From Pirellulales bacterium (GTDB taxonomy: Bacteria; Planctomycetota; Planctomycetia; Pirellulales; UBA1268): DNA of 61,450 nucleotides. The notes beneath the pieces were generated by a model. The model did no database searches, was not told the DNA's origin, and was given only the letters and a program-made list of their open reading frames with translations. Shown in pieces: positions 29,401 through 58,942 of this stretch. The translations under genes and the position numbers were made by a program. The stretch is from the NCBI GenBank assembly GCA_040397685.1, contig JBBAVM010000001.1, positions 64,432 through 125,881 on the forward strand, written 5' to 3'. The first letter of the stretch is position 1. Every line of letters starts with the position of its first letter.

Positions 29401-32400
29401 GCGAGGTCGAACGCTTCGGCTATTTCTTTCCGACCCGCGCCGGCAAGGGCCGGCGGCTGGAATGGACGGCCGCCCAGCTCGACGACTGCACCCGGCTCGT
29501 GCGGCAGCTCGCCGAGATCGCCCGGCAGGGCATGTTTCTGCCGACGAGCGATGCCGCCGACTGCGGCCACTGCGACTTCGCGCCGGTCTGCGGCGATCCG
29601 GCGAAGGTCGCCCGCGACGCCGCGCGGATGGTCGCCGCCTCGGATGCGTTGCGGAATCTGTTCGGCGTCTTGCGCCGCGACCGCCAGCCGCGTCCCGAGC
29701 TCGAGATCCGCCGCCCCCACGAGGCGTCGCTCGACCTCACGCCCCATCCGCCCGCGCCCGTCCCACCGCCCGACGAACCCGTGCGGGAACGGATCCGCAC
29801 CGACCTCGCCACGACGCTCCTGGTGGAGGCCGCGGCGGGCACCGGCAAGACCACGTGCATCGTCGCCAGGATGCTCGCGCTGGTGCGCACCGGCACCGCA
29901 CGGCCCGAGGGGATCGTCGCCGTCACCTTCACGAAGAAGGCCGCAGCCGAACTCCGGCGGCGGTTTCGCGAGCGGCTCCAGCGGGCCACGAGTGAGGCGA
30001 CCGATCCGGCCGAGCAGGTGCGACTGGCGGCCGCACTCGAACGGATCGACTCGATGGTGATCGGCACCATCCACTCGTTCGCCGGCCGCCTGCTCCGCGA
30101 ACGGCCGCTCGAGGCGGGAATCGACCCCGGGTTCCGCGAACTCGACGAGGCGTCCGACCGGATGCTGCGCCGCCAGGCCTGGCGCGACTTCGTGACGAGC
30201 GCACCGACCGACCATCCGCAGTTGCTCGCCGATCTGGCCGCCGTCGGACTGCGGCTCGGCGACCTCTCGCAGCTGTTCATCGATCGCTTCGCCACCTATG
30301 GCGACGTCGAGGACTGGCCTGCCCCCGCCGCCGACCTGCCGGATACCGTTGCCGTGCTCCGCGCGGTCGAGGCGTTCGTGACGCGGATCGAGGCCGAGGC
30401 GTTTCCGGAGCCGGCGGACCGCGGCACCGACGACCTCATGAACGCGCTCGAGCAGTTCGCGCGCATGGTGCGCCGCTGCGACACATCGTCGGTCGCCGCC
30501 GTGATGGACACGATCCAGGAGCTCGATCGCTCCCCCAAGCCCACGCAGAAATACTGGCCCGGCACGGGCGACACCGATGCGGCACGGAAAGCCGCGCAGA
30601 AAGACGCAGCCCTCGGCTGGCAAGCCGCTTGGGAACAGTTGCGCGACACGGTCGCGCTCCCCGCCCTCTGGCAGTGGCGGGCGCATCGCTATCCGACCGC
30701 CATCGCGGCCCTGAAGGCGGCGCTGGCCGTCTACGATCGCCTGCGGGCGGAGCGGGGGGTGCTGTCGTTTCAGGATCTCCTCTGCAAAGCGGCCCGGCTC
30801 GTCGCCGGCGATGCCGACGTGCGGCGGAGCTTCCGCAGCCGCTACACGCACCTACTCGTGGACGAGTTTCAGGACACCGACCCGGTGCAGGCCGAGATGC
30901 TTCTCCTGCTCACCGCCGACGACCCGCGCGAGACCGACTGGCGGAAGTGCGTGCCGGTGCCCGGGTCGCTCTTCGTGGTCGGCGATCCCAAGCAGTCGCT
31001 CTACCGATTTCGGCGGGCCGACATCGTCACCTATTCGGCGGTCCGCGATGTGATCGCGGCCCACGGCGATGTCGTCGCCTTGACCACGAATTTTCGCAGC
31101 CGCGGCGATCTCGTCACTTGGACCAACGACGTGTTCTCCCAGGAGTTTCCGCCCCAGCCCACCGTGGAGTCGCCCTCGTTCACGCCAAGCACGTCGGGCC
31201 GGCGCGAGGCCCCGGTGGATGGCAACGAACGGGGCTGGCTCACGGGGCTCCGCACGCTGCGGCTCGTCCGCAGCGGCACCGGCGGTGACGCGTGGGCGGA
31301 GCGCGAGGCCCGCGAGATCGCGGGGTTCATCAAGAACGCGGTCGATGCCCGGATCGCGGTGCCCCGCACCGTCGAAGAAGCGGCCGCGGGCGCGACGACG
31401 GCCTGCCGGCCGGGCGATTTCCTCATCGTGGCCCGCGAGCGGAAGCACCTCGGCATCTACGCAGCCGCCTGCCATGCGGCGGGGCTGCCCGTCGATGTGA
31501 CCGGCACGCTCGGCGAAGATCAGGCCGAGCCGCTCCGCGGCCTGCGCACCTGCCTCGCGGCGCTTGCCGATCCCGACGATCCGGTGGCGATGCTCGCGCT
31601 GTTGCGGGGCGCGGTGTTCGGATTCAGCGATGCCGATCTCTTCGCCTACAAATCGGCCGGTGGAAGGTTTGGGGGCCCGATCGACGTGCCGCAGAAGCTC
31701 GACCCGGCGCTGGCCGAGCGTTTCTCCGGCACCCGCACGGCATTCGCCCGCTGGCGCGGGTGGCTCAAGCACCTGCCCGTGGCGGCCACCGTGGAGCGGG
31801 TGATCGACGACGCGGGGCTATTGCTCGTCGCCGCCGCCGCCGACGGTGAGGCCGGGCCGCGCGGCAGGGCGGTGGCGGGCCTCCTTCTCAAGTATGTCGA
31901 GCGGTTGCGGAGCGACCGGCTGGAAGTGGTGTCGCTCCACGATTGTCTCGACCTGCTCGATGACATGCTCGACACGTCCGCGCGTGCCGAGTTCGACCCG
32001 CTCACGATCGACGTGCCGTCGGCCGACCGCGTGCGGATCATGAACCTCCACAAGGCGAAGGGGCTCGAGGCCCCGGTCGTGTTCCTCGCCGATTTCCAGC
32101 GGCGTGAGCCCGGGGACGACGCGGAGGACGGCCCCTACCTGCACGTCGATCGCTCCGCACACCGCACCACCGGCTGGCTCGCCGTCACGCATCCCGTCGG
32201 CCGGGCGACGAAGATCGTGGCGGCGCCCCCGGGCTGGGCCGACCTGTGTCGCCGCGAACGGGCGTTCGAGGCGGCCGAGCGAATCCGCCTCGACTACGTG
32301 GCCGCCACGCGGGCCGGCGCCTGCATGGTCGTGTCGCTCTTCGAGAAGCACGAGAAGGCGACGAAGACGAAGCCCGAGTCGTTCGCGGCCGACGGCGCCT

Positions 32401-33116
32401 GGGACCGGTTCGCCGGCTTTCTCGCCGACGTGCCTGATCTGCCCACGCTCTCCCCTTCGCCACTCGCGGCGCGCTCCGGCCGTGGCGTGCAGCCACCCGC
32501 CGACCTCGCCAATCGCATCTGCAGCCGCGTCGGCACGGCGCTGCAACACACCTTCGCGCGGATCTCGCCGCGGGAGTTGCTCACGGAACCAGCCGAAGGA
32601 ATCCGCTTCACGGGCAGCGGCCTCGGCGAGCCGTGGGGCCGGGCGATCCACCGGCTGCTCGAACTCGCGGCACATGATCCTGGCCTCGACCTCGACGCCG
32701 CTGCCGCCACGGCCCTCTCGAGCGAGGAGGTGCCGCCGGGGCATCTCGCCCGGGCCGTCGCGACGGTGCGCGACGTGCTCGCAAGCGACGTGTGGAAACG
32801 GGCCCAGGCAAGCGGCGAGCGATTCGTCGAGGTACCGTTCGCCGTGCAGGTGCGGGGCGAGGAACTGCCCGACCGGGTGCGGGTGTTCACCGGCGACGGA
32901 CCGCCGGTGCCGACGGTGGTCCGCGGGGTGATCGACCTCGTCTTCCGTGAGGCCGACGGTGCTTCACAGGGTTCTTGGACGGTGGTCGATTGGAAGACCG
33001 ACGCCGTCGCCGCCGACAGCGTGGACCGTCTCCACGACCACTACCGCCCGCAGGTCGAACTCTACGCCGACTGTTGGCGGCTGCTCGCGGACAGCACGGC
33101 TCCGCAACCTCTATAA
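26418..33116 (+). CDS. Single-polypeptide AddB-AddA-type helicase-nuclease (2232 aa)
   Basis: N-terminal half is AddB-like, with a nuclease/Fe-S module (GACPRRFF.., RGRIDRID..LWDYKSG 29259-, CGHCDFAPVC 29562-29591). C-terminal half is UvrD/AddA-like (AAAGTGKTT 29838-, VTFTKKAA, LVDEFQDTD, VGDPKQSLYRFRRAD) and ends in a PD-(D/E)xK motif (GVIDLVF..VVDWKTD 32988-, QVELY). Confidence 0.8.
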   Translation: MSPSRKTAAAPAAAPGWHALEVPVPVASRLVRSRGGLPGRAAPQANRLLESLAAALPDIALERATETVADPAWLIAPSRRIGHQWLETLVRLGHGIANVHVTTVSALAFDIVADALAATGTTLAPPRAKLVAVERVLDESRPDLRSFAGAEGSLRRLAERVLSSLESLRAAGLAPRDVARSLGRSDKAHDLGLLLERYTAALRAMNLTDQAGEIALAIAEVEAGRVPSALALLLVPDDIDLPPLERRLLDTLAKAPGVRMRSLATDPPLPAAFAPIDTPPISIFRAAGEANEVRHLLRTCLARGLTFDEIEIVHTDAATYPALVREIVAALPQPTDDAGREHHVPVTFAEGLPLVDSKPGRALAGWLAWRRTGHPQAGLERLLRDGVLDLRGLAADALPAPALVREFRGVKIGRGLDRTVSMLANAAARAAEQPAAAFARHDDDEGPREATSPEDLASRKARISGRLDALAGLARWLADCEGGPNPSASSVLAGARRFVETLCPADSEFDGNARRLLLDEIDAMLQWQGDHAGTTPREMLDWLEQLPAELVVLGSGPRPGCLHVSGLAGGGHAGRPYTFVLGLDENRFPGGGAADPLLTDGDRILINHQHPEARLAVARDAATRNLDLWRRLLARLRGEVWLGFSCRDTTDDAEVFPSPALVALHARLTGNPLATVADLLATLAPPETLVPDNPDLALDESQWWLATLSPDATGADVAAALAAHRGHLAHGQAAVAARASREFTPYDGLVPAAGPQLDPRAGRAASPNSLEMIGACPRRFFFRYGLGIEPLEEFDDDADRWLTPLDAGSLLHTVLERFMRDLIDSGEAPEVARHLDGLLAILDAELDASRQRQPPLTMLAFEARRDELRSAMLTFLHDEERSCRESGRRPLALEAAIGIEPAGAATPFDCAEPVAVLLAPGETLRLRGRIDRIDVRSGTGAPAYTLWDYKSGSGYGFPAVSDADPFAGGRKLQHGLYVVMLRTRLADPSCPIAGGEVERFGYFFPTRAGKGRRLEWTAAQLDDCTRLVRQLAEIARQGMFLPTSDAADCGHCDFAPVCGDPAKVARDAARMVAASDALRNLFGVLRRDRQPRPELEIRRPHEASLDLTPHPPAPVPPPDEPVRERIRTDLATTLLVEAAAGTGKTTCIVARMLALVRTGTARPEGIVAVTFTKKAAAELRRRFRERLQRATSEATDPAEQVRLAAALERIDSMVIGTIHSFAGRLLRERPLEAGIDPGFRELDEASDRMLRRQAWRDFVTSAPTDHPQLLADLAAVGLRLGDLSQLFIDRFATYGDVEDWPAPAADLPDTVAVLRAVEAFVTRIEAEAFPEPADRGTDDLMNALEQFARMVRRCDTSSVAAVMDTIQELDRSPKPTQKYWPGTGDTDAARKAAQKDAALGWQAAWEQLRDTVALPALWQWRAHRYPTAIAALKAALAVYDRLRAERGVLSFQDLLCKAARLVAGDADVRRSFRSRYTHLLVDEFQDTDPVQAEMLLLLTADDPRETDWRKCVPVPGSLFVVGDPKQSLYRFRRADIVTYSAVRDVIAAHGDVVALTTNFRSRGDLVTWTNDVFSQEFPPQPTVESPSFTPSTSGRREAPVDGNERGWLTGLRTLRLVRSGTGGDAWAEREAREIAGFIKNAVDARIAVPRTVEEAAAGATTACRPGDFLIVARERKHLGIYAAACHAAGLPVDVTGTLGEDQAEPLRGLRTCLAALADPDDPVAMLALLRGAVFGFSDADLFAYKSAGGRFGGPIDVPQKLDPALAERFSGTRTAFARWRGWLKHLPVAATVERVIDDAGLLLVAAAADGEAGPRGRAVAGLLLKYVERLRSDRLEVVSLHDCLDLLDDMLDTSARAEFDPLTIDVPSADRVRIMNLHKAKGLEAPVVFLADFQRREPGDDAEDGPYLHVDRSAHRTTGWLAVTHPVGRATKIVAAPPGWADLCRRERAFEAAERIRLDYVAATRAGACMVVSLFEKHEKATKTKPESFAADGAWDRFAGFLADVPDLPTLSPSPLAARSGRGVQPPADLANRICSRVGTALQHTFARISPRELLTEPAEGIRFTGSGLGEPWGRAIHRLLELAAHDPGLDLDAAAATALSSEEVPPGHLARAVATVRDVLASDVWKRAQASGERFVEVPFAVQVRGEELPDRVRVFTGDGPPVPTVVRGVIDLVFREADGASQGSWTVVDWKTDAVAADSVDRLHDHYRPQVELYADCWRLLADSTAPQPL

Positions 33117-34566: not shown

Positions 34567-35532
34567 TCACGGGCCCGTGGGCTTCGGCTCGGGATTCTCC
34601 ATCTGCACGAGCTCCCACTCCTGCACGGCCGTGCCGGTCTTCATCGTCACGCCGCTCGGGGTCTTCAGGAGCGCGTCGAGCGTGGTCTCGAACGTCGCGC
34701 CTCCCGACGCGCCGACCGTCCACGTCGCCTTGCGGGTCTCCGCGTCGATCTTTCCGGAAATCGGCTGCGTGGCGTTGGAGATCGCATCGTAGTAGTTGCC
34801 CTTGAGCTCACCCTTTCGGCTTACGGCGAGTTGCTGGTAGACGTGCGCCTGCGTCGCACCCTTCGGGGCGGTGGCAAAGACGCCGAGCGGCAGCCATTCG
34901 AGATCCTCCGGCGGCGCGGCCGACGATGCCGGCGTCGCCGTCGTGGAAGCCGCTGCCGATGTGGCGGCGGCCGTCGTCGCGCCCTCGGTGGCCACGGAAT
35001 AGCCGAGCCAGCTCGAGAGCCCGGCGACGCCCGCCACGGCCCACCAATCGGCGTAGGGATGCGCATACCGCCAGGCATTCGGATGTTCGGCATACCAGGC
35101 GGCGGTGAACGGCTGCGTGCGGCCGGCGAGCGACGCCTGGAGGGAATTCACGCGGCTCTGCGCCGCGGCGGGATCGACCGCCGCTCGCGCGGCCGCCGGC
35201 CTGGCGTTGATGAAGGTTTCGACGTCGCGGGGCGACGCAGGCCTTCCGACGCCGGCCGGTCCAGGACCGATCGCGCCAGGACCGATCGCGCCGGGCCCCG
35301 CGGCGCCCGGACCGACGGCACCGGGCCCACCGGGGCCGCCCGGGCCCGGACGCATGCCGCCGCCCACACCGGGCCGATCAGCGTTGCCGGGGCCACCGGG
35401 GCCACCGGGGCCGCCGGGGCCTCGCCCACCGCCCGGTCGGGCGAAGGCCTCGAACTCACACGAAACGATCGAGGCGATGACGAATGCCACGCGAACGACA
35501 CGACGCAGCGAGTCGGAATGGAATCGGCTCAT
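34567..35532 (-). CDS. Secreted protein with Gly/Pro-rich low-complexity region
   Basis: Signal-like N-terminus MSRFHSDSLRRVVRVAFVIASIVS, then (GPG)n-type tracts, then a globular C-terminal half. Confidence 0.55.
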   Translation of the reverse strand: MSRFHSDSLRRVVRVAFVIASIVSCEFEAFARPGGGRGPGGPGGPGGPGNADRPGVGGGMRPGPGGPGGPGAVGPGAAGPGAIGPGAIGPGPAGVGRPASPRDVETFINARPAAARAAVDPAAAQSRVNSLQASLAGRTQPFTAAWYAEHPNAWRYAHPYADWWAVAGVAGLSSWLGYSVATEGATTAAATSAAASTTATPASSAAPPEDLEWLPLGVFATAPKGATQAHVYQQLAVSRKGELKGNYYDAISNATQPISGKIDAETRKATWTVGASGGATFETTLDALLKTPSGVTMKTGTAVQEWELVQMENPEPKPTGP

Positions 35533-37639: not shown

Positions 37640-39730
37640 TCAGTCGGTCGTCCAGCGGCTCTCGTAGACGGTATCCCGCCGTGGCATGATCACCGACCAG
37701 CCGATGAGCTGGCCGTAGGGATGGTCGATCGTGTATCGCGACGTGAGCGGCTCAGCGGCATCGGGGGCGCCGCGCGGATAGCGCACGAGTTCGTACCGTC
37801 GATAGGGGTGATCCTCCGGAAAGAGCAGCCACACCGTGATGAGGTCGGCGTCGAACTGCATCACCATCGGCATGCGGCCCGGCGGCAACGACGAAAATCG
37901 CACGGCCCCGCCGAGCTCGAGCGTGATCGGCTCGTCGAGCGGTGCCTTCGAGAGGTCGCAGTGGAATTCGTAGGCTCCCCCGGCGGCGTCCGGCGGCGTC
38001 GCAGTCACCCGCCGCACCGCGATCGGATACGGGCTCTTGGGCTGGCGGTAGTCCACGTCCTCGATGTCGAACGCGGTGCGGAAAACAACGCCGCGCGTCT
38101 GCCGCGCCGCATCCTTCACCCGCAGCACGACGCGGTCGCGGAAATGCACGCGGCCCCCCGAGTCGGGTCCCAGCCTCCCCGACCAGGCGTGGCGGAGATC
38201 GTTGATCCGACTGTAGGCGAGGATCTCGACGCCGGCGAAGTCGTCGGGAGTGGGGACGGCAGCCGTTGTGACGGCGATTTTCCGCCATGTGACGAACGGG
38301 TCGCTCTCCACGAGATCGAGGACGATCCGGATGTCGGGGTCCCCCTTCGCGATCGAATCGATCACGCTCGTGAGCATCTCGGCGCGGCGGTGCACCTTGT
38401 AGAATCGCACCGGGAGATAGATGAACAAGAGGCCGGCGAGGGCGAGGTAGAGGTAGGTCGGCCAGTCTTTCCAGTCGAGGAGCATCGACCAGACTTTCCG
38501 CTGACTCGACCGGCGCAGGAGCGCCGCGATGCGGGCGGTTTCGTTCGTGTCCGCCGTGCGTGCGGTGCCGGGGGCCTGTTCCGCCGCCCCCGACCGTCCC
38601 CGCTGCACGACCGACGACCGTCCCGGCACCGGCTCCCAGGGCGGCCCCTCCGCCACCGGCTTGATCGCCTTGTCGCCGAGCCGGCGATGGAGGCTCCTGG
38701 CCACCTCGTATCCATGGGCGACGAGCGCGTTCGCCTCGAGGTCGCTGAACCGGTCGAGGTCGGTGCGGATGCTCGATACTTCGGCCTGCACCACGGGGTG
38801 CAGGGCGTGCGGGTCGTCGTGGGGATCGACCACATACGTCACCGGCAGAAACAAAAACCCGTTGCGGTCGCCGAAGTTCTCGCGCTCGAGCTGCCACACC
38901 CTGTCCCAGAGGATGTCGGACGCCCGGATCGACTGTGCGACGAAGCCCAGTGGCGTGTTCCCCAGGATCTGGAACGGCTTGCCGGCATCGCTCACGACGA
39001 TCCTGTCGAAGGTGCGGCCGCAGTGTTGCACGAGCCAGGCGAATCCGCGCGTGCCGAGGTTGTCGTAGACGCCGCCGTCGGTGAACGACTCGGCCGGGAA
39101 CTGTCCCTCGTGTACCCCGAGGTCGGCGGCCGAGATTTCGACGGGTGGGAAGAACCCCGGAAACGCCGACGAGGCGCTGACCACTTTCGCGATGCTCGCC
39201 GTCTGGCCGGCGACGTGCCGGAAGGAACCCGCCGAGCCGGCATCGCGCGTTTGGATATGGAGGCCGTCGCGGTTGAACACCGCCATCACGCCGTCGCTCA
39301 CGTTCGTGGACAGTACGTGGAGGGCGGGTTGCTCGGGCAGTTCGAAGAGCCGCCGATCGCCATAGAGGAACTGCCGATACGCCCGCTCCAAGAGCGCATT
39401 GGGCGTGAACTGCGGTGCATGCCAGCCGGTGACTTTGGCCGCCAACCGCAACGGAAACAGGAGCGGCAGCCGGCGGACGATGCGGTTGCGCACATCATGC
39501 TGCACGAAGTGCAGGATCTCCGCGGCCGCCTCACCGAACGCCCGGTCGTCGCCGGTGTAGCGGTCCCAGTTGAGGACCAGATGCGCCCCCAGGATGCTTC
39601 CGCCGGAGACGGCTGCAATGTCGGTGACCAGCGGCAGGGTGCCGTTGTCGCGCAGATAGCGGATCACGCCCAGGTGGTAGAGCGTGGCTCGAAATCCTCC
39701 GCCGGAGAGGGCGAGTCCGATGGCGGCCAT
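37640..39730 (-). CDS. Patatin-like phospholipase with a central TM segment and a ~270-aa uncharacterised C-terminal domain
   Basis: Motifs: LALSGGGFR oxyanion motif, AVSGGS (GxSxG), FTDGGVYDNLG (catalytic DGG), TM WPTYLYLALAGLLFIYLPV. Confidence 0.85.
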   Translation of the reverse strand: MAAIGLALSGGGFRATLYHLGVIRYLRDNGTLPLVTDIAAVSGGSILGAHLVLNWDRYTGDDRAFGEAAAEILHFVQHDVRNRIVRRLPLLFPLRLAAKVTGWHAPQFTPNALLERAYRQFLYGDRRLFELPEQPALHVLSTNVSDGVMAVFNRDGLHIQTRDAGSAGSFRHVAGQTASIAKVVSASSAFPGFFPPVEISAADLGVHEGQFPAESFTDGGVYDNLGTRGFAWLVQHCGRTFDRIVVSDAGKPFQILGNTPLGFVAQSIRASDILWDRVWQLERENFGDRNGFLFLPVTYVVDPHDDPHALHPVVQAEVSSIRTDLDRFSDLEANALVAHGYEVARSLHRRLGDKAIKPVAEGPPWEPVPGRSSVVQRGRSGAAEQAPGTARTADTNETARIAALLRRSSQRKVWSMLLDWKDWPTYLYLALAGLLFIYLPVRFYKVHRRAEMLTSVIDSIAKGDPDIRIVLDLVESDPFVTWRKIAVTTAAVPTPDDFAGVEILAYSRINDLRHAWSGRLGPDSGGRVHFRDRVVLRVKDAARQTRGVVFRTAFDIEDVDYRQPKSPYPIAVRRVTATPPDAAGGAYEFHCDLSKAPLDEPITLELGGAVRFSSLPPGRMPMVMQFDADLITVWLLFPEDHPYRRYELVRYPRGAPDAAEPLTSRYTIDHPYGQLIGWSVIMPRRDTVYESRWTTD

Positions 39731-39911: not shown

Positions 39912-40628
39912 TCAAAGAATTGTTGGCGCGAGCAGCAGGCTCGCGACCAGTTCGGGTACGCCTTCACAGGCAGTCTTGGCGATGCATTCGCACACGTCTG
40001 CGGGCACGAGATCGGGCACCTCGGGATTCACCACGATCCGCCGGGCTCGGCGGGGCGTGGCGAAGATGAGCGAGTTGGCCGGGTAGACCTCGAGCGACGT
40101 GCCGATGCACAGAAAAATATCGGCCTGCGACACGATCCTGGCCGCTTCGTCCATCGCCGGCACCTGTTCCCCAAACCACACGATATGCGGCCGCAGCTGG
40201 CTCCCGAGCGGGCATGTGTCGCCGAGGGCGATGTCGCGATCGCCCAGGTAGTGCGTATGGCTCGGATCCCGTGTGCTTCGGGCGTAGAGAATCTCGCCGT
40301 GCAGGTGCAGCACGTGCGTGGAGCCGGCCCGTTCGTGAAGGTCATCGACGTTCTGCGTGACGATGCGCACGTCGTAGGCCCTCTCCAGATCGACGAGCGC
40401 CCGGTGGGCGGCGTTTGGCTGTGCCGCCCGCACCTTCCGCCGCCGCACGTTGTAAAACTCGAGCACAAGCGCCGGATCCTTGGCCCAGGCCTCGGGCGTG
40501 GCCACGTCCTCCACCCGGTGGCCCTCCCACAGCCCGCCATCGCCACGAAACGTCTGCAGGCCGCTTTCGGCGCTGATGCCGGCCCCGGTGAACACGACGA
40601 GATTTTTCCGCGAGAGTTGAGGACGCAT
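39912..40628 (-). CDS. cobB: Sir2-family NAD-dependent protein deacylase (short CobB type)
   Basis: Motifs: FTGAGISAESGLQTFRG, QNVDDLHERAG, LHLHGE, IVWFGE, GTSLEVYPA. AAGGAGG SD in the 22-nt gap after the upstream gene. Confidence 0.85.
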   Translation of the reverse strand: MRPQLSRKNLVVFTGAGISAESGLQTFRGDGGLWEGHRVEDVATPEAWAKDPALVLEFYNVRRRKVRAAQPNAAHRALVDLERAYDVRIVTQNVDDLHERAGSTHVLHLHGEILYARSTRDPSHTHYLGDRDIALGDTCPLGSQLRPHIVWFGEQVPAMDEAARIVSQADIFLCIGTSLEVYPANSLIFATPRRARRIVVNPEVPDLVPADVCECIAKTACEGVPELVASLLLAPTIL

Positions 40629-40650: not shown

Positions 40651-42096
40651 TTAGGTGTTGATGCTCAGGGCGTCTTCCCCGGCCTGGGCGATGCGAGCGA
40701 TCGCCGCGATCATTTCGGCGTGGGTCGGGTGGGACGGTGCCGTGCTGCGAGCTGGAGCCGTGGCGTCGCTCCGCAGCCAGCGCGGGAGTTCAATGCCCGG
40801 ATTCAGCCGCAGTTTTGCGAGCCCCGAGGGGCTCACGTGCCGCAATCCCCTGAGCGAGAGCGTGCCGCCTAAGTGGGAGACGAGGATGCCTGCGACGCGG
40901 TCTGTCACGCTCGCGACGCCGTCGAGCGTCAGCAGCGGATGCCGCACGAGCTCGCGGGCCGTGTCTTCGCTGAGGAGCGTGATGCCGTTGAGCGACAGTT
41001 CCCCGGCCCGGTGCGTCGCCAGGATCGTGGCCACCGGCGGCGTGACGTGCTCGATGTCGTTCACAAACAGCCCGGACAGTCCGGCGATGCCCCGTGGGCC
41101 CTGCTGGCTCGCGAGGATCCTGGCCGTGCGTTGATCCAGTTTCTTGAGCCCGCCGAGCGACAGCGGCCCGACATGCCGGATGAGCGCCGCGAGGTGGTGA
41201 TCCGCGATGCCATTCGGCGGCGAGAGTGAGAGGGACCCCTGGTGCTGGCCGAGGGAGTGCACGACCGCATCGGTGATCTCGACGGCATTGAGATAGAGCG
41301 GCCCTCGATGCTCGGCGAGAAGCTGGGCCTCGGTGGGAGACAGCGACTTGAGCCCCCTCAAGCACAGATGCCCCGTGCGGCTGCCGAGGGCGCGGGCCGC
41401 GGCTTCCTTGAGACGCGGGATCCCGTGGAGGTGCAGCTTCCCGCAATGCCTGGCCAGATGCGTCGCGACCCTGCCGGGCAGCCGGGAGAGCCCATCGAGA
41501 AACAGGTCACCGCGATGATGGGATAACGCAGCCGCGGCACCGGGCGACAGCTGCTTCAAACCCCAGAGGTAGAGCTCGTTGTCGTGCTGGGCCAGTCCGA
41601 GGGCCGCGTCGTCATCGAGGTGCTTGAGGCGGTTCAAGGAGAGTTCGCCATCGTGGCGGCCGAGTGCCCAGGCGGCCGCGTTCGAGAGTTTTCGGAGGTT
41701 GTTGAGCGACAGCCCGCCGCCAGCGTGCTTTCCCAGTTCGGCGGCGACGCCGTCGGTGATGGTCGTCAGCTTGTCGAGATAGAGATGCCCGCGGTGCTGC
41801 GCGAGTTGTCGAGCCACCGAGAGTGGAAGCCGGATGACTTCGTGCAGGTAGAGATGCGTGGCGTGGTGGCCGATGATGCCTTCGGCCGTGCCGGTGCCCA
41901 GGCGGCCAAGCACCACCTCACCTTTGGTGGCCGCCACGACGTGATCGCGCGCGTCGTGGGTTTCGCAAAAAACCGTCGGCCCTGTCGCCGGGATGGGCCG
42001 GCGAAAGAGGGCCACGATCTCGCGGGCTCGAGCCGCGTCGAGGTGGCGAATCCTGCTTGTGTGGTCGCGCAGGGAGGGCGGGCTGAGCGAGGCCAT
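40651..42096 (-). CDS. Repeat protein with about 15 tandem ~24-aa Leu-rich units (LRR-like)
   Basis: Start MASLSPPSL at 42096, at the edge of cassette 1. Recurrent L.L..L..L....A..La.H.G.L.L units, e.g. HRGHLYLDKLTTITDGVAAELGK / HDGELSLNRLKHLDDDAALGLAQ. Confidence 0.55.
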   Translation of the reverse strand: MASLSPPSLRDHTSRIRHLDAARAREIVALFRRPIPATGPTVFCETHDARDHVVAATKGEVVLGRLGTGTAEGIIGHHATHLYLHEVIRLPLSVARQLAQHRGHLYLDKLTTITDGVAAELGKHAGGGLSLNNLRKLSNAAAWALGRHDGELSLNRLKHLDDDAALGLAQHDNELYLWGLKQLSPGAAAALSHHRGDLFLDGLSRLPGRVATHLARHCGKLHLHGIPRLKEAAARALGSRTGHLCLRGLKSLSPTEAQLLAEHRGPLYLNAVEITDAVVHSLGQHQGSLSLSPPNGIADHHLAALIRHVGPLSLGGLKKLDQRTARILASQQGPRGIAGLSGLFVNDIEHVTPPVATILATHRAGELSLNGITLLSEDTARELVRHPLLTLDGVASVTDRVAGILVSHLGGTLSLRGLRHVSPSGLAKLRLNPGIELPRWLRSDATAPARSTAPSHPTHAEMIAAIARIAQAGEDALSINT

Positions 42097-42470
42097 CGTG
42101 CGCACTCCAGAATGAGCCACGCACCAAGAACCAGCCCGGCGGGCGTGCTGCCCGTCAGACTGCTGCAACATTGTTTCGTGAGGAATGAATCCTCACGCAC
42201 ATCCCGCCGGCATTTTCATGCCGACGGAAGCACCGTGTGCCTTGCAGGGGCTCGGTTGCGGAAACGCCCCGAGGCGTCTCCAACACGTCGTGGGGGACGT
42301 GTCGTTCCTGATGCTGATGTCATTTTACCGCATCACTGCATCGAAGGCCAGTTTTTCACGAGCAACGCGTGTCATAGTCGCGCTCGCGCAACTGCCGAGC
42401 GCAATCGTCGCGGACCAAGGTTGTCCCTGTCGTGCCTCACAATAATGACCTCGTTACCAGGAGGCTCCCA
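42097..42470. promoter_or_regulatory. Structured divergent intergenic region, cassette copy 1
   Basis: 374 nt between divergent start codons. Shares long identical blocks with 58566-58942. Inverted repeats CGTGAGGA..TCCTCACG (42177-42197) and ACACGTC-gtggg-GACGTGT (42283-42301). Motif GGACCAAGGTTGTCCC at 42412-42427. Confidence 0.7.
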
Positions 42471-42665
42471 ATGATCGGACCGGCAAAGAATCGACTGCAC
42501 GACTACGAAGCGGGGTGGCTCACGCTCTTGATCAAGATGGGCGTGGCTTCCCAAGCCGAAGCCCAGGCCGCGATGACCCGCGTCGCCCAGGCGGCGATCG
42601 ACGAGATGGAGGCGAAGCAGGAGAAACGGCAACGTGAACGAAAACGGCGCCAGAAACCTGATTGA
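42471..42665 (+). CDS. Small conserved protein (64 aa), cassette copy 1
   Basis: AGGAGG SD, then ATG 42471. MIGPAKNRLHDYEAGWLTLLIKMGVASQAEAQAAMTRVAQAAIDE.. plus a basic tail. Paralog at 58943-59137 differs largely by synonymous changes. Confidence 0.6.
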   Translation: MIGPAKNRLHDYEAGWLTLLIKMGVASQAEAQAAMTRVAQAAIDEMEAKQEKRQRERKRRQKPD

Positions 42666-42881
42666 AGGACGGCACCTCATTACAGGTCTGTCCGCCGACG
42701 GTTTCCGCAGGCTGCCACTATTTCGTTATCACCGTGGCTCGATGGGGCAGGTGTGGGCGACCTCAGCGGCATGAGCCACCGGGCACGCGTGAGGTCGGCC
42801 TGCGCGACGAAGGCTGGGAGGCCGATCTCGACGAGGCGAAGACGCCGGATCAGCAGGGCTAGGTGATCGCGTCGCGACCGC

Positions 42882-43130
42882 TCAGATTCGTCGGCGGTTG
42901 ATCGCCCGCAGGCCCGCGATCAGCACGATCGCGCCCACCGTCGCCGTCACGAGGCTGCCGACGAGCCCCGATGCCGAGAGGCCGAGCAGGCCAAACAGAA
43001 ACCCGCCGAGGATCGAGCCGATCACGCCCATGATCAGGTCGCTCACGAGCCCCGAGCCGCCCCCCTTCATGATCTGGCTCGCGAGCCACCCGGCCGCCAG
43101 GCCGATCGCCAGAAACCAAATAATGTCCAT
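42882..43130 (-). CDS. GlsB/YeaQ/YmgE family stress-response membrane protein
   Basis: Start MDIIWFLAIGLAAGWLAS at 43130. Gly-rich three-TM pattern typical of the family. Confidence 0.85.
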   Translation of the reverse strand: MDIIWFLAIGLAAGWLASQIMKGGGSGLVSDLIMGVIGSILGGFLFGLLGLSASGLVGSLVTATVGAIVLIAGLRAINRRRI

Positions 43131-43232
43131 AGCGCGAGCCTCCGGGAACGGACAATCCAGTTCAGATCCTACCCCCGGACACATGCGCAAATCCACGCCG
43201 CCGCCTGCCACCCAGGGCTACACTCGGAGCCC

Positions 43233-43628
43233 ATGGAGACTTTCCGCCTGCTCCTGTTCACCGCGCTCTGGACCGCCATCTGGGCGGCGCCGCTGCCCAA
43301 GCTCTCTCGTCGCGTGGAACTCGTCGCCGGGCTGATCCCGTTCGCGGCGTTCGGCCTGCGGGTGTTCGGAGCCTGCTTCATCGGCGTGCCCGACGACGAT
43401 CCCGTGCGCATGGCCGTCGCCCCGCTCGTGGACTGGGTCAATGGGGCGACGGGAGCGGTGCCGTTTCAGTGGGCGCTCGACTGCACCGTGGCGATCGGGC
43501 TTGTGTGGTTCGCGTCGATCGCCAACATCCCGCGGCGCTGGCGGCTGGCCACGATCTGGGTCATGCCGGCCATGGCCCTCGCGAGCCTCGCCTGGACGCA
43601 CTGGCTTCTCCCGCTCCGGAAGCCGTAG
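43233..43628 (+). CDS. Hypothetical integral membrane protein
   Basis: Four hydrophobic segments, followed by an intrinsic terminator. Confidence 0.5.
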   Translation: METFRLLLFTALWTAIWAAPLPKLSRRVELVAGLIPFAAFGLRVFGACFIGVPDDDPVRMAVAPLVDWVNGATGAVPFQWALDCTVAIGLVWFASIANIPRRWRLATIWVMPAMALASLAWTHWLLPLRKP

Positions 43629-43656
43629 CCGCCGCCTAGAGGTGGGCTGCGCTCAC

Positions 43657-43701
43657 ACGTGCCCTGTGCGATAGGTTTCTTTCGCACAGGGCACGTTTTT
43701 T
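43657..43701 (+). terminator. Rho-independent terminator
   Basis: ACGTGCCCTGTGCGA-taggtttctt-TCGCACAGGGCACGT followed by TTTTTT. Confidence 0.85.
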
Positions 43702-43796
43702 AGGCTTCTAACGCCGCCGAGTGACCTGCCCCCCTTAAACGTCGCCACTTTCAGAGAGAGAATCTCTGGGTGGTGCAACCCAAGGGAGGGCACGAG

Positions 43797-44078
43797 ATGC
43801 CACGAGGAAAGAAGTTCACGGCGGAGCAGATTATCGGAAAGCTCCGCGAGGCGGAGGTCGAGTTGGCTCGGGGCAAGACCGTGCCCGAGGTGGTGCGGAA
43901 GCTTGGCGTGACCGAGCAGACGTATTACCGCTGGAAGAGGGAGTACGGCGGCCTGCGAACGGACCAGGCGAAGCGGCTGAAGGATCTCGAGAAGGAGAAC
44001 GCTCGATTGAAGCGACTCCTGGCGGACGCCGAACTGGACAAGGCGATCCTGCGGGAGGCGGCATCGGGAAACTTCTGA
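43797..44078 (+). CDS. IS3-family transposase OrfA (HTH)
   Basis: MPRGKKFTAEQIIGKLREAEV..GVTEQTYYRWKREYGG..LKDLEKENARLKRLLAD. GGGAGGG SD. Confidence 0.9.
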   Translation: MPRGKKFTAEQIIGKLREAEVELARGKTVPEVVRKLGVTEQTYYRWKREYGGLRTDQAKRLKDLEKENARLKRLLADAELDKAILREAASGNF

Positions 44079-44977
44079 GCCCGGCGAAGCGGCGCCAGAC
44101 GGTCGAGCACGTGCGTGACACGCTCGGCCATGATGTGGTGACCGAACGCCGGGCATGCCGGGTGCTGGGGCAGGCCAGGAACACGCAGCGTCGGCAGGCA
44201 TGCGTTGCTGATGACGAGCCGCAGCTCGTGAAGCGGATCGTCTGGATGGCCAGCGAGTACGGACGCTACGGATACCGCAGGATTACAGCACTTCTGCGAG
44301 CGGAAGGCTGGTGGGTGAACCACAAGCGGGTGGAGCGGATCTGGCGACAGGAGGGCCTGAAAGTGCCTGCGAAACAGCCGAAGCGGCGGCGGCTCTGGCT
44401 TGGAGACGGGTCGTGCGTCCGGCTACGGCCGAGGCACCGGAACCACGTCTGGAGCTACGACTTCGTGATGGATCGGACGGCCGACGGCCGGGCGTTCCGG
44501 ATGCTGACGATCGTGGACGAGTACACGCGGGAATGCCTGGCGATCGACGTGTCGAGGAAGCTGACCAGCGAGGACGTCTTGGAAAGGCTGAGCGACCTGT
44601 TCGTGCGAAAAGGCGTGCCCGATCACATTCGCAGCGATAACGGCAGCGAGTTCACCGCGACACGAGTGCGGGAGTGGCTCGGCCGGGTCGGGGTGAAGAC
44701 GCTTTACATCGAGCCTGGATCCCCTTGGGAGAACGGCTACATCGAGAGCTTCAACGGCAAGCTGCGGGATGAGCTCCTGGCCCGCGAGGTGTTCGATACC
44801 CTGCTCGAGGGCAAGGTGCTGATCGAGTGCTGGCGGAAGGCCTACAACACGGTCCGACCGCACAGCTCACTCGGGTACCGGCCCCCGGCCCCGGAGTCGC
44901 GCCGCCCCTGTCCGCTTGCTTCGGCTACGCCTCAGCAAGCGGACAGGGGCGAGCCATTGGTAGGGAAACCCTATTGA
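44066..44977 (+). CDS. IS3-family transposase OrfB (DDE integrase core), expressed as OrfAB by -1 frameshift
   Basis: Slippery G_GGA_AAC at 44066-44072 in the orfA frame. The -1 frame continues ..LLSPAKRRQTVEHV.. into the rve core (WSYDF..DEYTRE..HIRSDNGSEF..GSPWENGYIESFNGKLRDE). Confidence 0.85.
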   Translation, partial: GKLLSPAKRRQTVEHVRDTLGHDVVTERRACRVLGQARNTQRRQACVADDEPQLVKRIVWMASEYGRYGYRRITALLRAEGWWVNHKRVERIWRQEGLKVPAKQPKRRRLWLGDGSCVRLRPRHRNHVWSYDFVMDRTADGRAFRMLTIVDEYTRECLAIDVSRKLTSEDVLERLSDLFVRKGVPDHIRSDNGSEFTATRVREWLGRVGVKTLYIEPGSPWENGYIESFNGKLRDELLAREVFDTLLEGKVLIECWRKAYNTVRPHSSLGYRPPAPESRRPCPLASATPQQADRGEPLVGKPY

Positions 44978-45061
44978 TAGAAACTGGTTCCATCAGTGGG
45001 GGCAGGTCAGGCCGCGCTGCACATTCCGATGCAGTCAGTGACTCGCCGATAGCGCCTCGAC

Positions 45062-45226
45062 ATGCATCGACGAGTCATGGGCGGCGAGGAGAGAAAGTAC
45101 CCCCGACAGGGATCCAACAAACGCGGTATCTCTCGGGGAAAACCCAAAAAGGGTAGGCCACCCGGCGCAAAATCCGGCACCACGAAAGCCAAACGATCCA
45201 AGGGCCGGAAGGGAGGTGCGAAATGA
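45062..45226 (+). CDS. Possible small basic AT-hook-like protein (54 aa) coupled to the recombinase gene
   Basis: MHRRVMGGEERKYPRQGSNKRGISRGKPKKGRPPGAKSGTTKAKRSKGRKGGAK. Its TGA (45224-45226) overlaps the recombinase ATG (45223) as ATGA. Below the track size cutoff. Confidence 0.3.
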   Translation: MHRRVMGGEERKYPRQGSNKRGISRGKPKKGRPPGAKSGTTKAKRSKGRKGGAK

Positions 45227-47244
45227 TGCACCTCCGCCAACCCATTGTTCTTGCCTTCGGGAAACCGTTTCGTGTGTTGATCCATGCCCGGTTCTCGACC
45301 GAGGAGCAGCGTCCCACCAGCATCGACGACCAGATCGCTGCCTGCCGCCGCTTCTTGGATGCAAACCTGCCCAAGGGCATGAAGCCCTCGCAGTTGGTGA
45401 TCGACTACGTCAAGGAGCCCGAGGTCAGCGGCGAGATTGCCGATCGCTCCGGCATCAATCAGGTCTGGGCCGGCATCGAGGCCAAGCGGTGGGATCTGAT
45501 CATCGCCGAGGAGTCGAGCCGTCTCTACCGCCACCACACGAAGGCCGGCGAACTCTTCGAGTCGGCGGTCGATGCCGGCGTGCGGGTGATCTGCCCGTCG
45601 GACTACATCGACACGGCCGACGACGACTGGCCCGACCGGCTGCATATGTGCCAGATGCAGCACGCCCGATCGAACTATTACGTGCGAAACCGGATCATGC
45701 GTGCCCACGAAGGTCTCTGGGCTCGCGGGGCTGCGGTCGGCATCACCGTGATCGGCTACAAGCGCCGACCGACGTTGCCGGCAACGAAGACCGAGCCGGC
45801 GAGGGGCCCCTTTTACGATGAGATCGACAAGAAGACGGCCCCAGTCATCCGAGAGGTCTTCAAGCGGATCGCGGCTGGCGAAACAGCAGCCGAGGTCGCA
45901 GAGTGGCTCGACTCGATCAAGTTTGCCAAGGCGAAGTGGGCACGGCAGGCCAAGTGGACGAAATACAACGTCAACTCGATCATCCGCCGGACGATCTATC
46001 GGGGTTTTGAAACAAACCGCAAGAAGGTCTCGAAACGAAAGCTCCGGACCGGCAAGTCGGAGTACGTTTGGAACGATCCCGACAAGGTAGAGACCCGCAA
46101 AAGCGAGCATTTGCGGATCGTGTCGGACGCCCTCTGGTATAAGGCCAACGAGGTCGTCGACAACCGTCGCCTCTTCAAGAAGCCGGTCCGCGGCGCGGGG
46201 TACCCGCTTCACGGCACGACCCGCCAGCGGCGTGGTCTGCTCTCGGGCGTATTCACCTGCGGCGTCTGCGGAGCACCGATGTATTCCTACGGGAAGACAA
46301 ACGGCTCGTACCGCTGCTCCGCATCAGCGCAGGGAAAGTGCTGGAACCGGGTCTACTGCGTCCGGAAACGCACCGAGCCGGCGATCCTCGAAGCGGTGGT
46401 CAACGAGGTGTTGTCTCTCGACGGTGTCCGCGACGCGGTGCTGGCCCGTGTTCGGGAACTGCACGAGAAAGGTGGCTCGCTGGCCGTCGAACTCAAGAAG
46501 CTCGATACGGAGGAAAAGAAGCTCGTAGCCTCAATCGAGCGACTATCAGCAGCGGTGGAGAGCGGCGACGGAACGCTCACGTCACTGACGTCGCGGCTGG
46601 CAGCTCGGGAGCAAGATCTCGCGATCGTGAGGGCCCGTCGGCAGGAGGTTGAGGAGCAGGCGGGTCGCAAGGAGAAACTGCCCTCTGCGACGAAACTCCT
46701 CCAGCACCTTGAGGCCGTGAAGACCCAGGTGCTCGGCGACGAGGCCCGGGCGGCGGTAATCCTACGGCAACTACTCGACGGGCCGATCCGTGTGGTGCCG
46801 TTCATGCGGATCGACGGTAGCAAGGTGGTGCCGCGGTTGGAGTTCACCATCAATCTCGTCGCGGCACTGCCGTCGGCGGTGGCGACGCGGCTTCGCCATC
46901 GGGCGGCCGTGGAGGAGCCGTCGGCCGACTCTCCGACGGTGCTCCAGCGGAAACTCCTCGTCAACGCCTACCACAATCCGCAAAAAGCATTGCACGCTTG
47001 CGCGATCGTGGAACGACGTCTGGCGGGGAAAACCACCAAGGAGATCGCCAAGGAATTCGGCCTCACGAAGGACGACATCCGAAACTGCGCACGGATCACG
47101 GAGTTGATGGAGGAGGCGGGCATTCCCGAGCCCTACCACCGACTCACGCAGAGACCGGTGCGCGTCGCCCGGTGGTCGAGCAAGCACTGGCTGCAGGATG
47201 AAGACCGCAAGGGCGGCGGTAAACGCCGCCGCCGGGCGTCATAG
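45223..47244 (+). CDS. Large serine recombinase
   Basis: Resolvase catalytic N-terminus (LIHARFSTEEQ), recombinase domain, zinc ribbon (CGVCGAPMYSYG..YRCS..GKCWN), coiled coil. Confidence 0.9.
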   Translation: MMHLRQPIVLAFGKPFRVLIHARFSTEEQRPTSIDDQIAACRRFLDANLPKGMKPSQLVIDYVKEPEVSGEIADRSGINQVWAGIEAKRWDLIIAEESSRLYRHHTKAGELFESAVDAGVRVICPSDYIDTADDDWPDRLHMCQMQHARSNYYVRNRIMRAHEGLWARGAAVGITVIGYKRRPTLPATKTEPARGPFYDEIDKKTAPVIREVFKRIAAGETAAEVAEWLDSIKFAKAKWARQAKWTKYNVNSIIRRTIYRGFETNRKKVSKRKLRTGKSEYVWNDPDKVETRKSEHLRIVSDALWYKANEVVDNRRLFKKPVRGAGYPLHGTTRQRRGLLSGVFTCGVCGAPMYSYGKTNGSYRCSASAQGKCWNRVYCVRKRTEPAILEAVVNEVLSLDGVRDAVLARVRELHEKGGSLAVELKKLDTEEKKLVASIERLSAAVESGDGTLTSLTSRLAAREQDLAIVRARRQEVEEQAGRKEKLPSATKLLQHLEAVKTQVLGDEARAAVILRQLLDGPIRVVPFMRIDGSKVVPRLEFTINLVAALPSAVATRLRHRAAVEEPSADSPTVLQRKLLVNAYHNPQKALHACAIVERRLAGKTTKEIAKEFGLTKDDIRNCARITELMEEAGIPEPYHRLTQRPVRVARWSSKHWLQDEDRKGGGKRRRRAS

Positions 47245-56924: not shown

Positions 56925-57022
56925 AGATTCGGCTGATGATCGCCTCGGGTTAACCGCCGCTGATTGATCGCGTCGAACGTGTCGATGTAAAATGCATTCC
57001 TCGCGTCAGGGAGCTGAAGCCG

Positions 57023-58221: not shown

Positions 58222-58565
58222 CACAACGCTCCTTTCGTTTGCTGGGGGCCCGTCTCGTCGTCTTCCCAATACGTGCTCACCGCCGACCATCGCTCCTGGT
58301 TGACCTGGGCGGCCGCGGAGTCGCCGCCGAGGGAGTGGTAGCGGGCAGCCTCGGCGAACAGTTCCTTGGCGAGCAGTCCGAGCCCTGCTTGCTGGTAGAG
58401 CGTGGCGGCCTTCTCGCACCGCCTCGCAGCGGCTCGGATGAGCCGCTGGTTGTCGCCGGTCTTGGCCTCGCCAAAGACCCGTGCGGCCTCGGCCGCGGCG
58501 GCATCCGCGGCGTGAATCCGTTGCTGCCGCGCGCAAAACAGCTTCGGAAAGATGTCGTCTGCCAT
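58221..58565 (-). CDS. Hypothetical helical protein (114 aa), first cargo gene of cassette copy 2
   Basis: ATG 58565 (MADDIFPKLF) lies at exactly the same position relative to the conserved leader as the repeat-protein start at 42096. Confidence 0.5.
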   Translation of the reverse strand: MADDIFPKLFCARQQRIHAADAAAAEAARVFGEAKTGDNQRLIRAAARRCEKAATLYQQAGLGLLAKELFAEAARYHSLGGDSAAAQVNQERWSAVSTYWEDDETGPQQTKGAL

Positions 58566-58942
58566 CGTGCGTACTCCAGAACGAGCCACGCACCAAGAAC
58601 CAGCCCCACGGGCGGTGACACCCGTCAGACTGCTGCAACTCTCTTTTCGTGAGGCACGAGTCCTCACGCACATCCCGTCGACACTCTCGTGCCGGCGGAA
58701 GCACCGTTTGCCTTGCAGTGGCCCGGTTGCTGAAACGCCTCCGAGGCGTTCCCGACACGTCGTGGGGGACGTGTCGTTCCTGATGCTGCGTGCATTTTAC
58801 CCGGCGACTGCAGCACAGGCCATCATTCGGCCTGCGTCGAGCGTGTCATAGTTCGTCGCCACCAACACCGGGCCGCGACCGGTTCGGACCAAGGTTGTCC
58901 CTGTCGTCCGACAGTATTCGACATTGCCAAAAGGAGAACTAC
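58566..58942. promoter_or_regulatory. Structured divergent intergenic region, cassette copy 2
   Basis: 377 nt. Identical blocks with copy 1: GAGCCACGCACCAAGAACCAGCCC, CCCGTCAGACTGCTGCAAC, TCCTCACGCACATCCCG, and a 34-mer ACACGTCGTGGGGGACGTGTCGTTCCTGATGCTG (58755-58788). Motif GGACCAAGGTTGTCCC at 58886-58901. Confidence 0.7.

Follow-up and report, generated by a model that had tools for sequence, protein, structure and literature searches.

Results

Two copies of a conserved region in the window

We analysed a stretch of 61,450 nucleotides (nt) from a Pirellulales bacterium (GenBank assembly GCA_040397685.1, contig JBBAVM010000001.1, positions 64,432 to 125,881; hereafter the window, in whose own numbering all positions are given), in which a long conserved non-coding region with an adjoining gene for a 64-amino-acid (64-aa) protein occurs twice. 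Alignment identifies 42092-42665 (copy A) and 58561-59137 (copy B) as a homologous pair: the aligned part runs from a minus-strand CAT (42094-42096; 58563-58565) to the stops of the 64-aa open reading frames (ORFs; 42665; 59137), and on both sides of both copies similarity is gone and the sequences are unrelated. An earlier reading of the window made from its letters alone (the sequence-only reading) had recognised this pair and quoted identical blocks of 24, 19 and 34 nt, which we confirm; they lie at 42114 and 58583, at 42151 and 58621, and at 42283 and 58755, respectively, and each occurs exactly twice in the window. That reading also had the minus-strand ATGs abut the conserved sequence at the same nucleotide, and they do, although the copy-B gene starts at 58565 and not at 58566. 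The intergenic parts (374 and 377 nt) are 79% identical when gaps are included; the leader part defined below is 82% identical with 14 gap columns, and in the 34-nt spacer adjoining it only 23 of 37 positions are identical.

Each copy carries the 64-aa gene on the plus strand (copy A, 42471..42665; copy B, 58943-59137), preceded by a GGACCAAGGTTGTCC box on the same strand (42412..42426, about 58 nt 5' of the 64-aa ATG; 58886-58900). The genes that start at the opposite edge, on the minus strand, are referred to here as cargo. Behind copy A lies a gene for a 481-aa leucine-rich helical-repeat protein with no Pfam family (40651..42096), and the remainder of its operon encodes a CobB-like SIR2 protein (39912-40628; Pfam SIR2, 1e-42) and a patatin-like phospholipase (37640-39730; Pfam Patatin, 1e-17); behind copy B lie genes for a 114-aa protein of family A (see below), four-helix and TPR/SNAP-like (58221-58565), and for a 90-aa zinc-ribbon protein (57949-58221). 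The repeated region consists of two separable units: a minus-strand leader (unit 1) and the 64-aa gene with its own box (unit 2).

A probable structured leader RNA on the cargo strand

Very probably, the conserved non-coding block serves as template for a structured 5' leader RNA of about 220 nt and eight helices on the cargo strand, its sense being that of the window minus strand and of the cargo gene. This RNA is previously undescribed, and we class it with the structured cis-regulatory 5' leader RNAs. Among the options offered by the sequence-only reading, a long structured 5' leader before variable cargo is the one that prevails, on the strength of compensatory changes in about 90 copies, the assignment to the cargo strand, and a Shine-Dalgarno (SD) sequence and ATG inside the conserved unit. 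We assigned coordinates and fold in both window copies, which are of type 1 (copy A, 42094..42314; copy B, 58563..58786; both minus strand), and counted pairs on 76 copies. The unit is ordered as CTATGACAC box, variable stretch, TAnAnT box, helix P1 enclosing P2-P7, SD hairpin P8, SD and AUG, and its structured part spans about 205 nt.

P1 is a helix of 11 base pairs (bp) in which the 5' strand GCAUCAGGAAC (42314-42304 in copy A; 58786-58776 in copy B) pairs with the 3' strand GUUCUUGGUGC (42131-42121; 58600-58590). It closes a multi-helix junction that holds the hairpins P2 (42303-42282; 58775-58754), P3 (42281-42260; 58753-58731), P5 (42229-42202; 58700-58673), P6 (42197-42177; 58668-58648) and the two-part P7 (42162-42132; 58632-58601), together with P4 (42259-42230; 58730-58701), a nearly invariant core of 30 nt (GCAACCGRGCCNCUGCAAGGCANACGGUGC) with three 3-bp helices. 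P5 has 12 bp and a GNRA loop, GAAA behind a U-A closing pair in copy A and GAGA behind a C-G closing pair in copy B. The SD (GGAG in copy A, 42108-42105; copy B, 58577-58574) lies within hairpin P8 (42124-42098; 58593-58567), and the cargo AUG (42096-42094; 58565-58563) follows P8 by 2-3 nt. Three inverted repeats listed in the sequence-only reading are genuine, and correspond to P6, P3 and P2 of this larger fold.

Upstream of P1 stands the TAnAnT box, a probable −10 hexamer, which reads TAAAAT in both window copies (42322..42327; 58799-58794) and TAAAAT, TATAAT or TAGAAT in general. It keeps a fixed distance, with 7-9 variable nt between it and P1 (7 nt in copy A); in the 76 copies its first T is invariant, and A2, A4 and T6 are conserved in at least 90%. 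As this conservation profile resembles that of a −10 hexamer, the box probably acts as a −10 element and the RNA probably begins with P1. Farthest out among the conserved blocks of the leader lies the CTATGACAC box (42369..42377; 58851-58843; minus strand), which is kept in most copies and may be a transcription-factor or −35-like site.

Base pairing, strand and non-coding status

The minus strand of copy A folds with a minimum free energy (MFE) of −145 kcal/mol (z = −5.7; plus strand, z = −2.8). For comparative evidence we aligned 76 unique full-length leader copies with MAFFT in the orientation of the cargo gene, about ten of them degenerate, and scored 72 manually defined pairs against controls in which the 3' partners were slid by 1-3 columns. 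The 72-pair structure is 88.9% paired, compared with 35.5-43.9% in the slid controls; double changes affect 38 pairs and 235 cells, compared with 24.8 ± 2.4 pairs and 77 ± 7 cells in shuffled alignments, and none of 500 shuffles reaches the observed values. The copies form two clades, type 1 and type 2, and because this split inflates raw covariation counts, the test was repeated in type 1 alone (n = 47), where 97.1% of pairs are formed (35-43% when slid) and double changes occur in 13 pairs and 46 cells (4-6 pairs and 5-10 cells when slid). Run on each subtype separately, RNAalifold recovers P2-P8. An all-against-all covariation scan for pseudoknots was discarded, as it was dominated by the clade split. 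P4c never varies, and P4a and P4b hardly vary and show no standard-pair variants.

G-U pairs assign the RNA to the cargo strand: the proposed pairs include 467 G-U/U-G cells as against 154 A-C/C-A cells, and two positions of P1 that are U-G and G-U in type 1 have become U-A and A-U in type 2; on the opposite strand these two positions would be C-A mismatches.

The non-coding status claimed by the sequence-only reading also stands. At 65-70% GC every frame is open, so open-frame length was dropped as a coding test and replaced by tests of indel length and periodicity: relative to copy A, the 47 type-1 copies contain 94 indels of 1 nt and four of 2 nt, and variability among them shows no 3-nt (codon) periodicity. 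Between the window copies the leader keeps 82% identity, against a synonymous divergence (dS) of 0.76 in the adjacent 64-aa gene. The unit thus presents a conserved structured domain in a 5' untranslated region (UTR) with covariation, as is required of a riboswitch aptamer.

Comparison with Rfam 15 gave no match in the whole window at gathering thresholds, only chance-level c4-2 (15.3 bits) and snoTBR7 hits in 41900-42800 at E-values up to 10, and no match on the element at 12 further loci. A tRNA/tmRNA scan found none, no intrinsic terminator was found in the leader, and word searches of the literature returned no description of such a motif in Planctomycetes.

A candidate switch at the ribosome-binding site

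P8 is 91.3% paired with double changes in five of its six pairs, its arms being GUGCGU and GCGCAC in type 1 and AUGCGUUC and GAACGCAU in type 2. Folded in isolation, the tail reaches −11 to −16 kcal/mol in type 1 and −7.4 to −14.5 kcal/mol in type 2, with 3-4 of the 4 SD bases paired in all 46 type-1 copies and in 18 of 19 type-2 copies. The 4-5 nt at the end of the P1 3' strand also form part of the 5' arm of P8, so that full P1 and full P8 are mutually exclusive. The outer P1 pairs are present in the full-length MFE structure of 22/46 type-1 and 18/19 type-2 copies, and the type-1 figure points to a near-isoenergetic competition. As modelled, the P1/P8 arrangement is the layout of a translational switch, and the leader probably acts on translation by masking the ribosome-binding site or making it accessible.

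Copy number, range and linkage

The region is more than a window pair. A blastn search with the two window copies against 62 loci gave 10 further leader copies, and an exact pattern of the 20 most conserved specified bases (GCACCGTNTGCCTTGCAGNGGC) was found on 81 metagenome contigs; in all, public data yielded 97 leader copies, of which 87 are unique by sequence, from Planctomycetia metagenome-assembled genomes (MAGs) and lake metagenomes. Where the host genome is named, it is a Pirellulales, Planctomycetia or Planctomycetaceae MAG from a lake, and the closest relative of copy A, at locus L018, is 94% identical over 284 nt. A viral origin of the RNA was rejected, since the exact core pattern was negative on viral contigs and nhmmer was negative on 16 viral loci; only the 64-aa family has distant viral relatives.

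That the block is a functionless, neutral remnant of a recent segmental duplication is, given these numbers, extremely improbable. The window copies are 16.5 kb apart with mobile-element genes in between, and the 64-aa gene adjoins both of them, just as a duplicated segment would leave things; set against this are 97 copies on many contigs, those of about ten species-level genomes among them, compensatory changes that maintain base pairing, and a leader far better kept than the synonymous sites of the neighbouring gene and the adjacent spacer.

When the 64-aa gene and its box are set aside, the remaining ~285 nt (42094-42377) recurs without the gene. We counted linkage on 73 unique leader copies with enough upstream sequence. 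Type 1 has a divergent 64-aa gene in 26 copies and no 64-aa gene nearby in 30; type 2 has the gene upstream on the same strand in 4 copies and not nearby in 13. The gene therefore adjoins 30/73 copies, in two fixed arrangements, and is not adjacent to 43/73. Viewed from the other side, the RNA is present at 10 (blastn) or 11 (nhmmer) of 52 species-level genome loci with the 64-aa gene, and at several loci the leader lies on the other side of the gene or in the opposite orientation.

The 64-aa gene and its product

Homologues of the 64-aa protein form 887 clusters, nearly all of 62-64 aa, from Planctomycetia MAGs and lake metagenomes, and most do not adjoin the RNA. The protein has no Pfam domain and no PHROG or PADLOC family. 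Between copies A and B the gene differs by 30 codon changes, 15 synonymous and 15 non-synonymous (non-synonymous divergence dN 0.14, dS 0.76, ratio 0.18), in agreement with the purifying selection proposed in the sequence-only reading, which is strongest in residues 1-48. An AlphaFold2 (AF2) model (predicted local distance difference test, pLDDT, 75.5) consists of helices 7-22 and 28-61 followed by an Arg/Lys-rich C-terminal tail, a two-helix hairpin without helix-turn-helix, with which Foldseek found no match in the PDB.

Of 70 unique cellular 64-aa genes, 55 have the GGACCAAGGTTGTCC box upstream with no more than 2 mismatches, and loci without the RNA are among them; at L001, the locus of a 64-aa homologue, the upstream sequence shares only this box and the ribosome-binding site. 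By its distribution the box belongs to the 64-aa gene, not to the leader. The 16 relatives on viral contigs (IMG/VR, L147-L162) are 52-68% identical, 60-90 aa long and encoded on GC-rich contigs, and the box is not present there; most of the five viral contigs inspected have an HNH endonuclease-like, an excisionase-like helix-turn-helix or a 330-360-aa gene near the 64-aa relative.

These features bear on the idea that the region acts as DNA, with divergent promoters and palindromic operators for a 64-aa regulator. The inverted repeats do exist, and both CTATGACAC at the outer edge and GGACCAAGGTTGTCC, which is kept where the RNA is absent, resemble DNA sites; the long repeats, however, keep their pairing rather than their sequence, contain strand-specific G-U pairs unlike operators, and enclose loops that vary freely. 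In addition, the protein model offers neither a helix-turn-helix nor any of the families searched, and the 64-aa gene is often absent or on the same strand. With no DNA-binding fold in the model, no constant adjacency and no palindromes kept in sequence, we judge this explanation quite improbable, and the single portable cassette of regulator plus operators envisaged by the sequence-only reading is not supported: leader and 64-aa gene are separable, and the repeats behave like RNA helices.

An explanation that stays with RNA is that the leader is a stable non-coding RNA (ncRNA) or part of a ribonucleoprotein, bound for instance by the 64-aa protein, with its position in front of genes being secondary; or that the 64-aa protein, and not a metabolite, sets the P1/P8 balance. 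We consider this unlikely. A simple helical hairpin with an Arg/Lys-rich tail, a conserved GNRA loop on P5, the two fixed arrangements with the 64-aa gene, and a size and junction complexity above those of most translational leaders all fit it, whereas the many leaders without an adjacent 64-aa gene, the rarity of the RNA at gene-bearing loci, and an SD and ATG that are integral at a fixed distance, which argues for action in cis, do not. The 64-aa protein may bind the leader, but such binding is a conjecture from predicted features.

Cargo genes in flux

Clustering of the ORFs that start at the conserved ATG gave the cargo families. Family A (106-121 aa, with AGLGLLAK...STYWEDD motifs) is the commonest first gene behind type 1, and family B (about 93 aa, with a weak DUF6538 match) stands behind type 2; the others are the 90-aa zinc-ribbon protein, the leucine-rich repeat protein (445-481 aa), a DUF6717 protein (150-184 aa) and an ARPP-1 protein (317 aa). 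The sequence-only reading had described the cargo as completely different and unrelated. This holds between copies A and B but not across all copies, where a limited number of cargo types keep recurring: the one small TPR/SNAP-like family A makes up about half of the immediate cargoes, and cargo changes through deletions, fusions and recombination just 3' of the ATG. The AF2 model of family A is a four-helix TPR/SNAP-like fold (pLDDT 86.8) with weak Foldseek matches (best E-value 0.13; alpha-SNAP up to a template-modelling score of 0.68-0.70), and the family has only 15 clusters in a large protein set. Pfam, PHROGs and PADLOC gave no informative family for family A, the zinc-ribbon or the repeat protein. 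Members of family B (such as L076 3061-3345, L114, L119 and L132) share a conserved hydrophobic tail at the stop (..MLAAVA, ..FAAVA, ..LLIVA), possibly a tag for degradation or a trace of read-through.

Of 40 copies with at least 2.5 kb of downstream sequence, 14 have a CobB-like SIR2 gene further 3' on the same strand. A defence role of the SIR2 in the copy-A operon was considered and rejected, as the protein is CobB-like and has no PADLOC match.

One change of cargo could be resolved in detail. At L018 the order is leader, ARPP-1, repeat protein and SIR2; copy A has no ARPP-1, and an in-frame deletion at a CAGCC microhomology has left ARPP-1 codon 7 fused to the repeat-protein gene at about its codon 10 (MASLSPP|SLRDHTS), so that the first 7 codons of the 481-aa gene (MASLSPP) derive from the deleted gene. 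A deletion just past the ATG accounts for different genes abutting the leader at the same nucleotide. Many cargo ORFs are chimeric or truncated (L095, L065, L139, L026, L093, L118): family A ending in the FDVPY..EGG C-terminus of the zinc-ribbon protein, a DUF6717 N-terminus joined to the same C-terminus in a 30-aa fusion, 52-aa internal deletions of family A, and a fusion of families B and A. By these sequence comparisons the cargo loci are in rapid flux. The neighbourhood of copy B is syntenic across genomes, with TspO, DUF1653, the 64-aa gene, leader cassettes, SIR2 and a HIT-PLD-helicase (DUF1653 was not scanned for in the window).

Flux and copy number together raise the possibility that the element forms the end of a DNA unit that moves or recombines, and that it folds as single-stranded DNA, in the manner of integron attC sites or IS200/IS605 ends, which would explain both multi-copy spread and variable cargo. 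There are many near-identical copies, single-stranded DNA also tolerates G-T pairs, and inverted leader pairs flank cargo blocks at L076, L093, L110 and L141. At L076 a 2.4-kb block lies between a nitroreductase gene and the next gene, which at L117 are 20 nt apart; the block comprises a type-1 leader, remnants, SIR2, and then family B with a type-2 leader in the opposite orientation. Its right-hand boundary is the outer end of the CTATGACAC box (GTGTCATAA, L076 plus strand); CTATGACAC stands exactly at the right end and, inverted, about 40 nt inside the left end, with genes included between. L076 and L117 give one filled and one empty site, a pattern looked for in MITE or REP-like mobile repeats. 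Yet no target-site duplication is seen at the block boundaries in comparison with L117, and no recombinase or transposase is consistently adjacent in the loci examined, the IS3 transposase and large serine recombinase 2-5 kb from copy A notwithstanding. The element was not found on viral contigs, the fixed 3' SD-ATG and 5' TAnAnT box fit a transcription and translation unit, and the sole resolved cargo change is a simple microhomology deletion. We therefore regard a mobile end as very improbable; it is plausible that the leader serves as a recombination substrate as a side effect of its copy number.

Two kinds of known element were rejected for these loci: integrons, in that no IntI is nearby and the IS3 transposase and serine recombinase near copy A have no constant counterpart elsewhere, and retron ncRNAs (msr-msd), in that the downstream genes have no reverse transcriptase (RT) domain.

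Other features of the window

Beyond copy A (42867-47244) lie genes for a Transgly_assoc small membrane protein and a 131-aa unknown protein, IS3 OrfA and OrfB (44111-44977) and a 673-aa large serine recombinase with a C-terminal DUF433-like stretch (45223-47244). From 42 kb onward GC is about 0.64, down from about 0.70, and copy A may have arrived together with mobile DNA. Downstream of the copy-B 64-aa gene, a HIT-PLD-ResIII helicase fusion (59357-61450) is cut off by the end of the window; in PADLOC it scores best against a type IV methyl-directed restriction enzyme (6e-53), its HIT part matches ThsC, and the HIT-PLD-helicase gene also ends the syntenic block at L030.

A palindromic repeat, GGACAGGCTTCAGCCTGTC, with conserved flanks (18177-18306, 60426-60462, 61318-61354) occurs three times in one intergenic stretch, where two copies form a 98%-identical 42-nt tandem, and twice inside the open HIT-PLD-helicase frame, which stays intact (peptides ..VGQASACQM.. 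and ..SGTGFSLSN..); the orthologous helicase at L030 has a similar RTGFSLSN stretch elsewhere in the protein. The repeat looks like a repetitive extragenic palindromic (REP) or Rickettsia palindromic element (RPE)-like sequence that tolerates in-frame insertion. A 173-nt repeat of 86% identity (53928-54100 and 57010-57182) is not structured RNA (z = −0.9); its plus strand can be read as a small FmdB-type zinc-ribbon gene, with a CPHC motif, that has been duplicated. The repeat is conserved, too, 5' of the nitroreductase genes at L076 and L117, and its copy at 53.9 kb overlaps the end of a minus-strand DinB_2 ORF call. The window further contains a Gly-Pro-rich collagen-like nucleotide repeat, CCGGGGCCACCGGGGCC, in repeat family D6 (35312-35421), and a 2241-aa open frame (26394-33116).

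Discussion

Our analysis suggests a leader RNA whose closing helix and SD-pairing hairpin compete for the same nucleotides. In the model that we propose, the transcript would start at P1 on the minus strand and include the downstream gene; a signal bound by the junction would stabilise P1; and stabilised P1 would open P8, expose the SD and turn translation on. As signal we envisage either a small molecule or a factor acting in trans, for which the arginine-rich 64-aa protein is a possible candidate, and the recurrent CobB-like SIR2 downstream is the sole hint toward a small-molecule ligand. Leader, SD, ATG and sometimes the first codons would be kept while downstream genes are lost, fused or exchanged by deletion, and recombination among the many near-identical leader copies might also swap cargo. 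Regulatory switching and its ON direction are what we infer from the layout, and we give the full model, a signal-responsive P1/P8 translational switch, about an even chance of being right.

Several observations weigh against a structured, switching leader. On the structural side, type 2 is only 79.8% paired in the MAFFT alignment; the two-clade split raises the raw covariation counts; RNAalifold on the full mixed alignment yields fragments only and favours pairing of a 5' GCAUC with the invariant GGUGC of P4; and P4 and the outer P1 pairs hardly vary, which places them beyond covariation testing. The copies, up to 94% alike, come from a narrow clade, and part of their conservation accordingly reflects recent spread. 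On the regulatory side, a scan with the sigma-70 consensus did not find a full promoter, promoter and transcription start are read from sequence features, and the SD-pairing hairpin may be constitutive rather than switchable. Finally, riboswitch classes normally precede functionally coherent genes, and here the immediate cargo comprises at least six unrelated families, heterogeneous and mostly uncharacterised (TPR/SNAP-like, DUF6538-like, zinc ribbon, repeat protein, DUF6717, ARPP-1).

A more far-reaching possibility, which is speculative and on balance rather unlikely, is that the leader represents a novel class resembling riboswitches, or else a switch RNA that the arginine-rich 64-aa peptide reads, and that it gates translation of exchangeable small genes of conflict or signalling type in Planctomycetes (TPR/SNAP-like, DUF6538-like, ARPP-1, sirtuin operons); leader and first codons would then double as a homology handle by which cargo is swapped or trimmed with its regulation kept.

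To our knowledge, Planctomycetes are almost unexplored for RNA-based regulation, and the leader would add a large RNA that stands outside Rfam, is strongly supported by comparative evidence and has an invariant core of 30 nt. Its architecture makes a direct, testable prediction, namely competition between P1 and the SD-pairing hairpin. If the leader senses a metabolite or a small basic protein, it would define a new sensor, and its many copies before different genes would mark a hidden regulon in abundant freshwater bacteria. It is, moreover, a clear example of a conserved leader that persists while the genes behind it are deleted, fused and exchanged.

Large orphan structured leaders and ncRNAs have been obtained by comparative genomics, with raiA and the former ykkC orphans among these motifs of the Breaker/Weinberg type (PMC7266159, PMC11109978). 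Our leader likewise emerged from conservation and covariation in a long GC-rich intergenic region, and its function, like theirs, is unreadable from the neighbouring genes; it differs from the orphan motifs in being confined to freshwater Planctomycetia and in having SD and ATG always at a fixed distance. It is not among the motifs of these two genome-wide surveys, neither of which mentions planctomycetes (PMC7266159, PMC11109978).

The proximity of a small basic-tailed protein gene to a structured leader with a GNRA-type loop recalls lambda N and boxB, in which an arginine-rich-motif peptide works with an RNA hairpin; here, however, the linkage of 64-aa gene and leader is partial, there is neither an antiterminator context nor an intrinsic terminator, and binding is conjectural. 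Exchange of cassettes behind a conserved 5' segment is known from integron attI/Pc and from the orphan modules of polymorphic toxin loci. The leader resembles these in placing a constant expression signal before changing genes, its copies sharing the first codons (MASLSPP) and then diverging; unlike integrons, the leader loci have no integrase and no attC, and the resolved event is a microhomology deletion rather than site-specific recombination.

A close parallel in layout is offered by translational ON riboswitches, for instance the Vibrio vulnificus add adenine riboswitch, where an SD-sequestering helix and the P1 3' strand compete. The leader is much larger than the add type (eight helices and about 205 nt, compared with about 70 nt), its downstream genes are heterogeneous, its ligand is only hypothesised, and its copies within one genome, 82-94% identical, resemble one another far more closely than is typical within a riboswitch class. 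It nonetheless shares with the add type its position in the 5' UTR, a P1-closed junction with highly conserved unpaired or invariant nucleotides and, directly downstream, an SD-pairing hairpin whose 5' arm overlaps the P1 3' strand.

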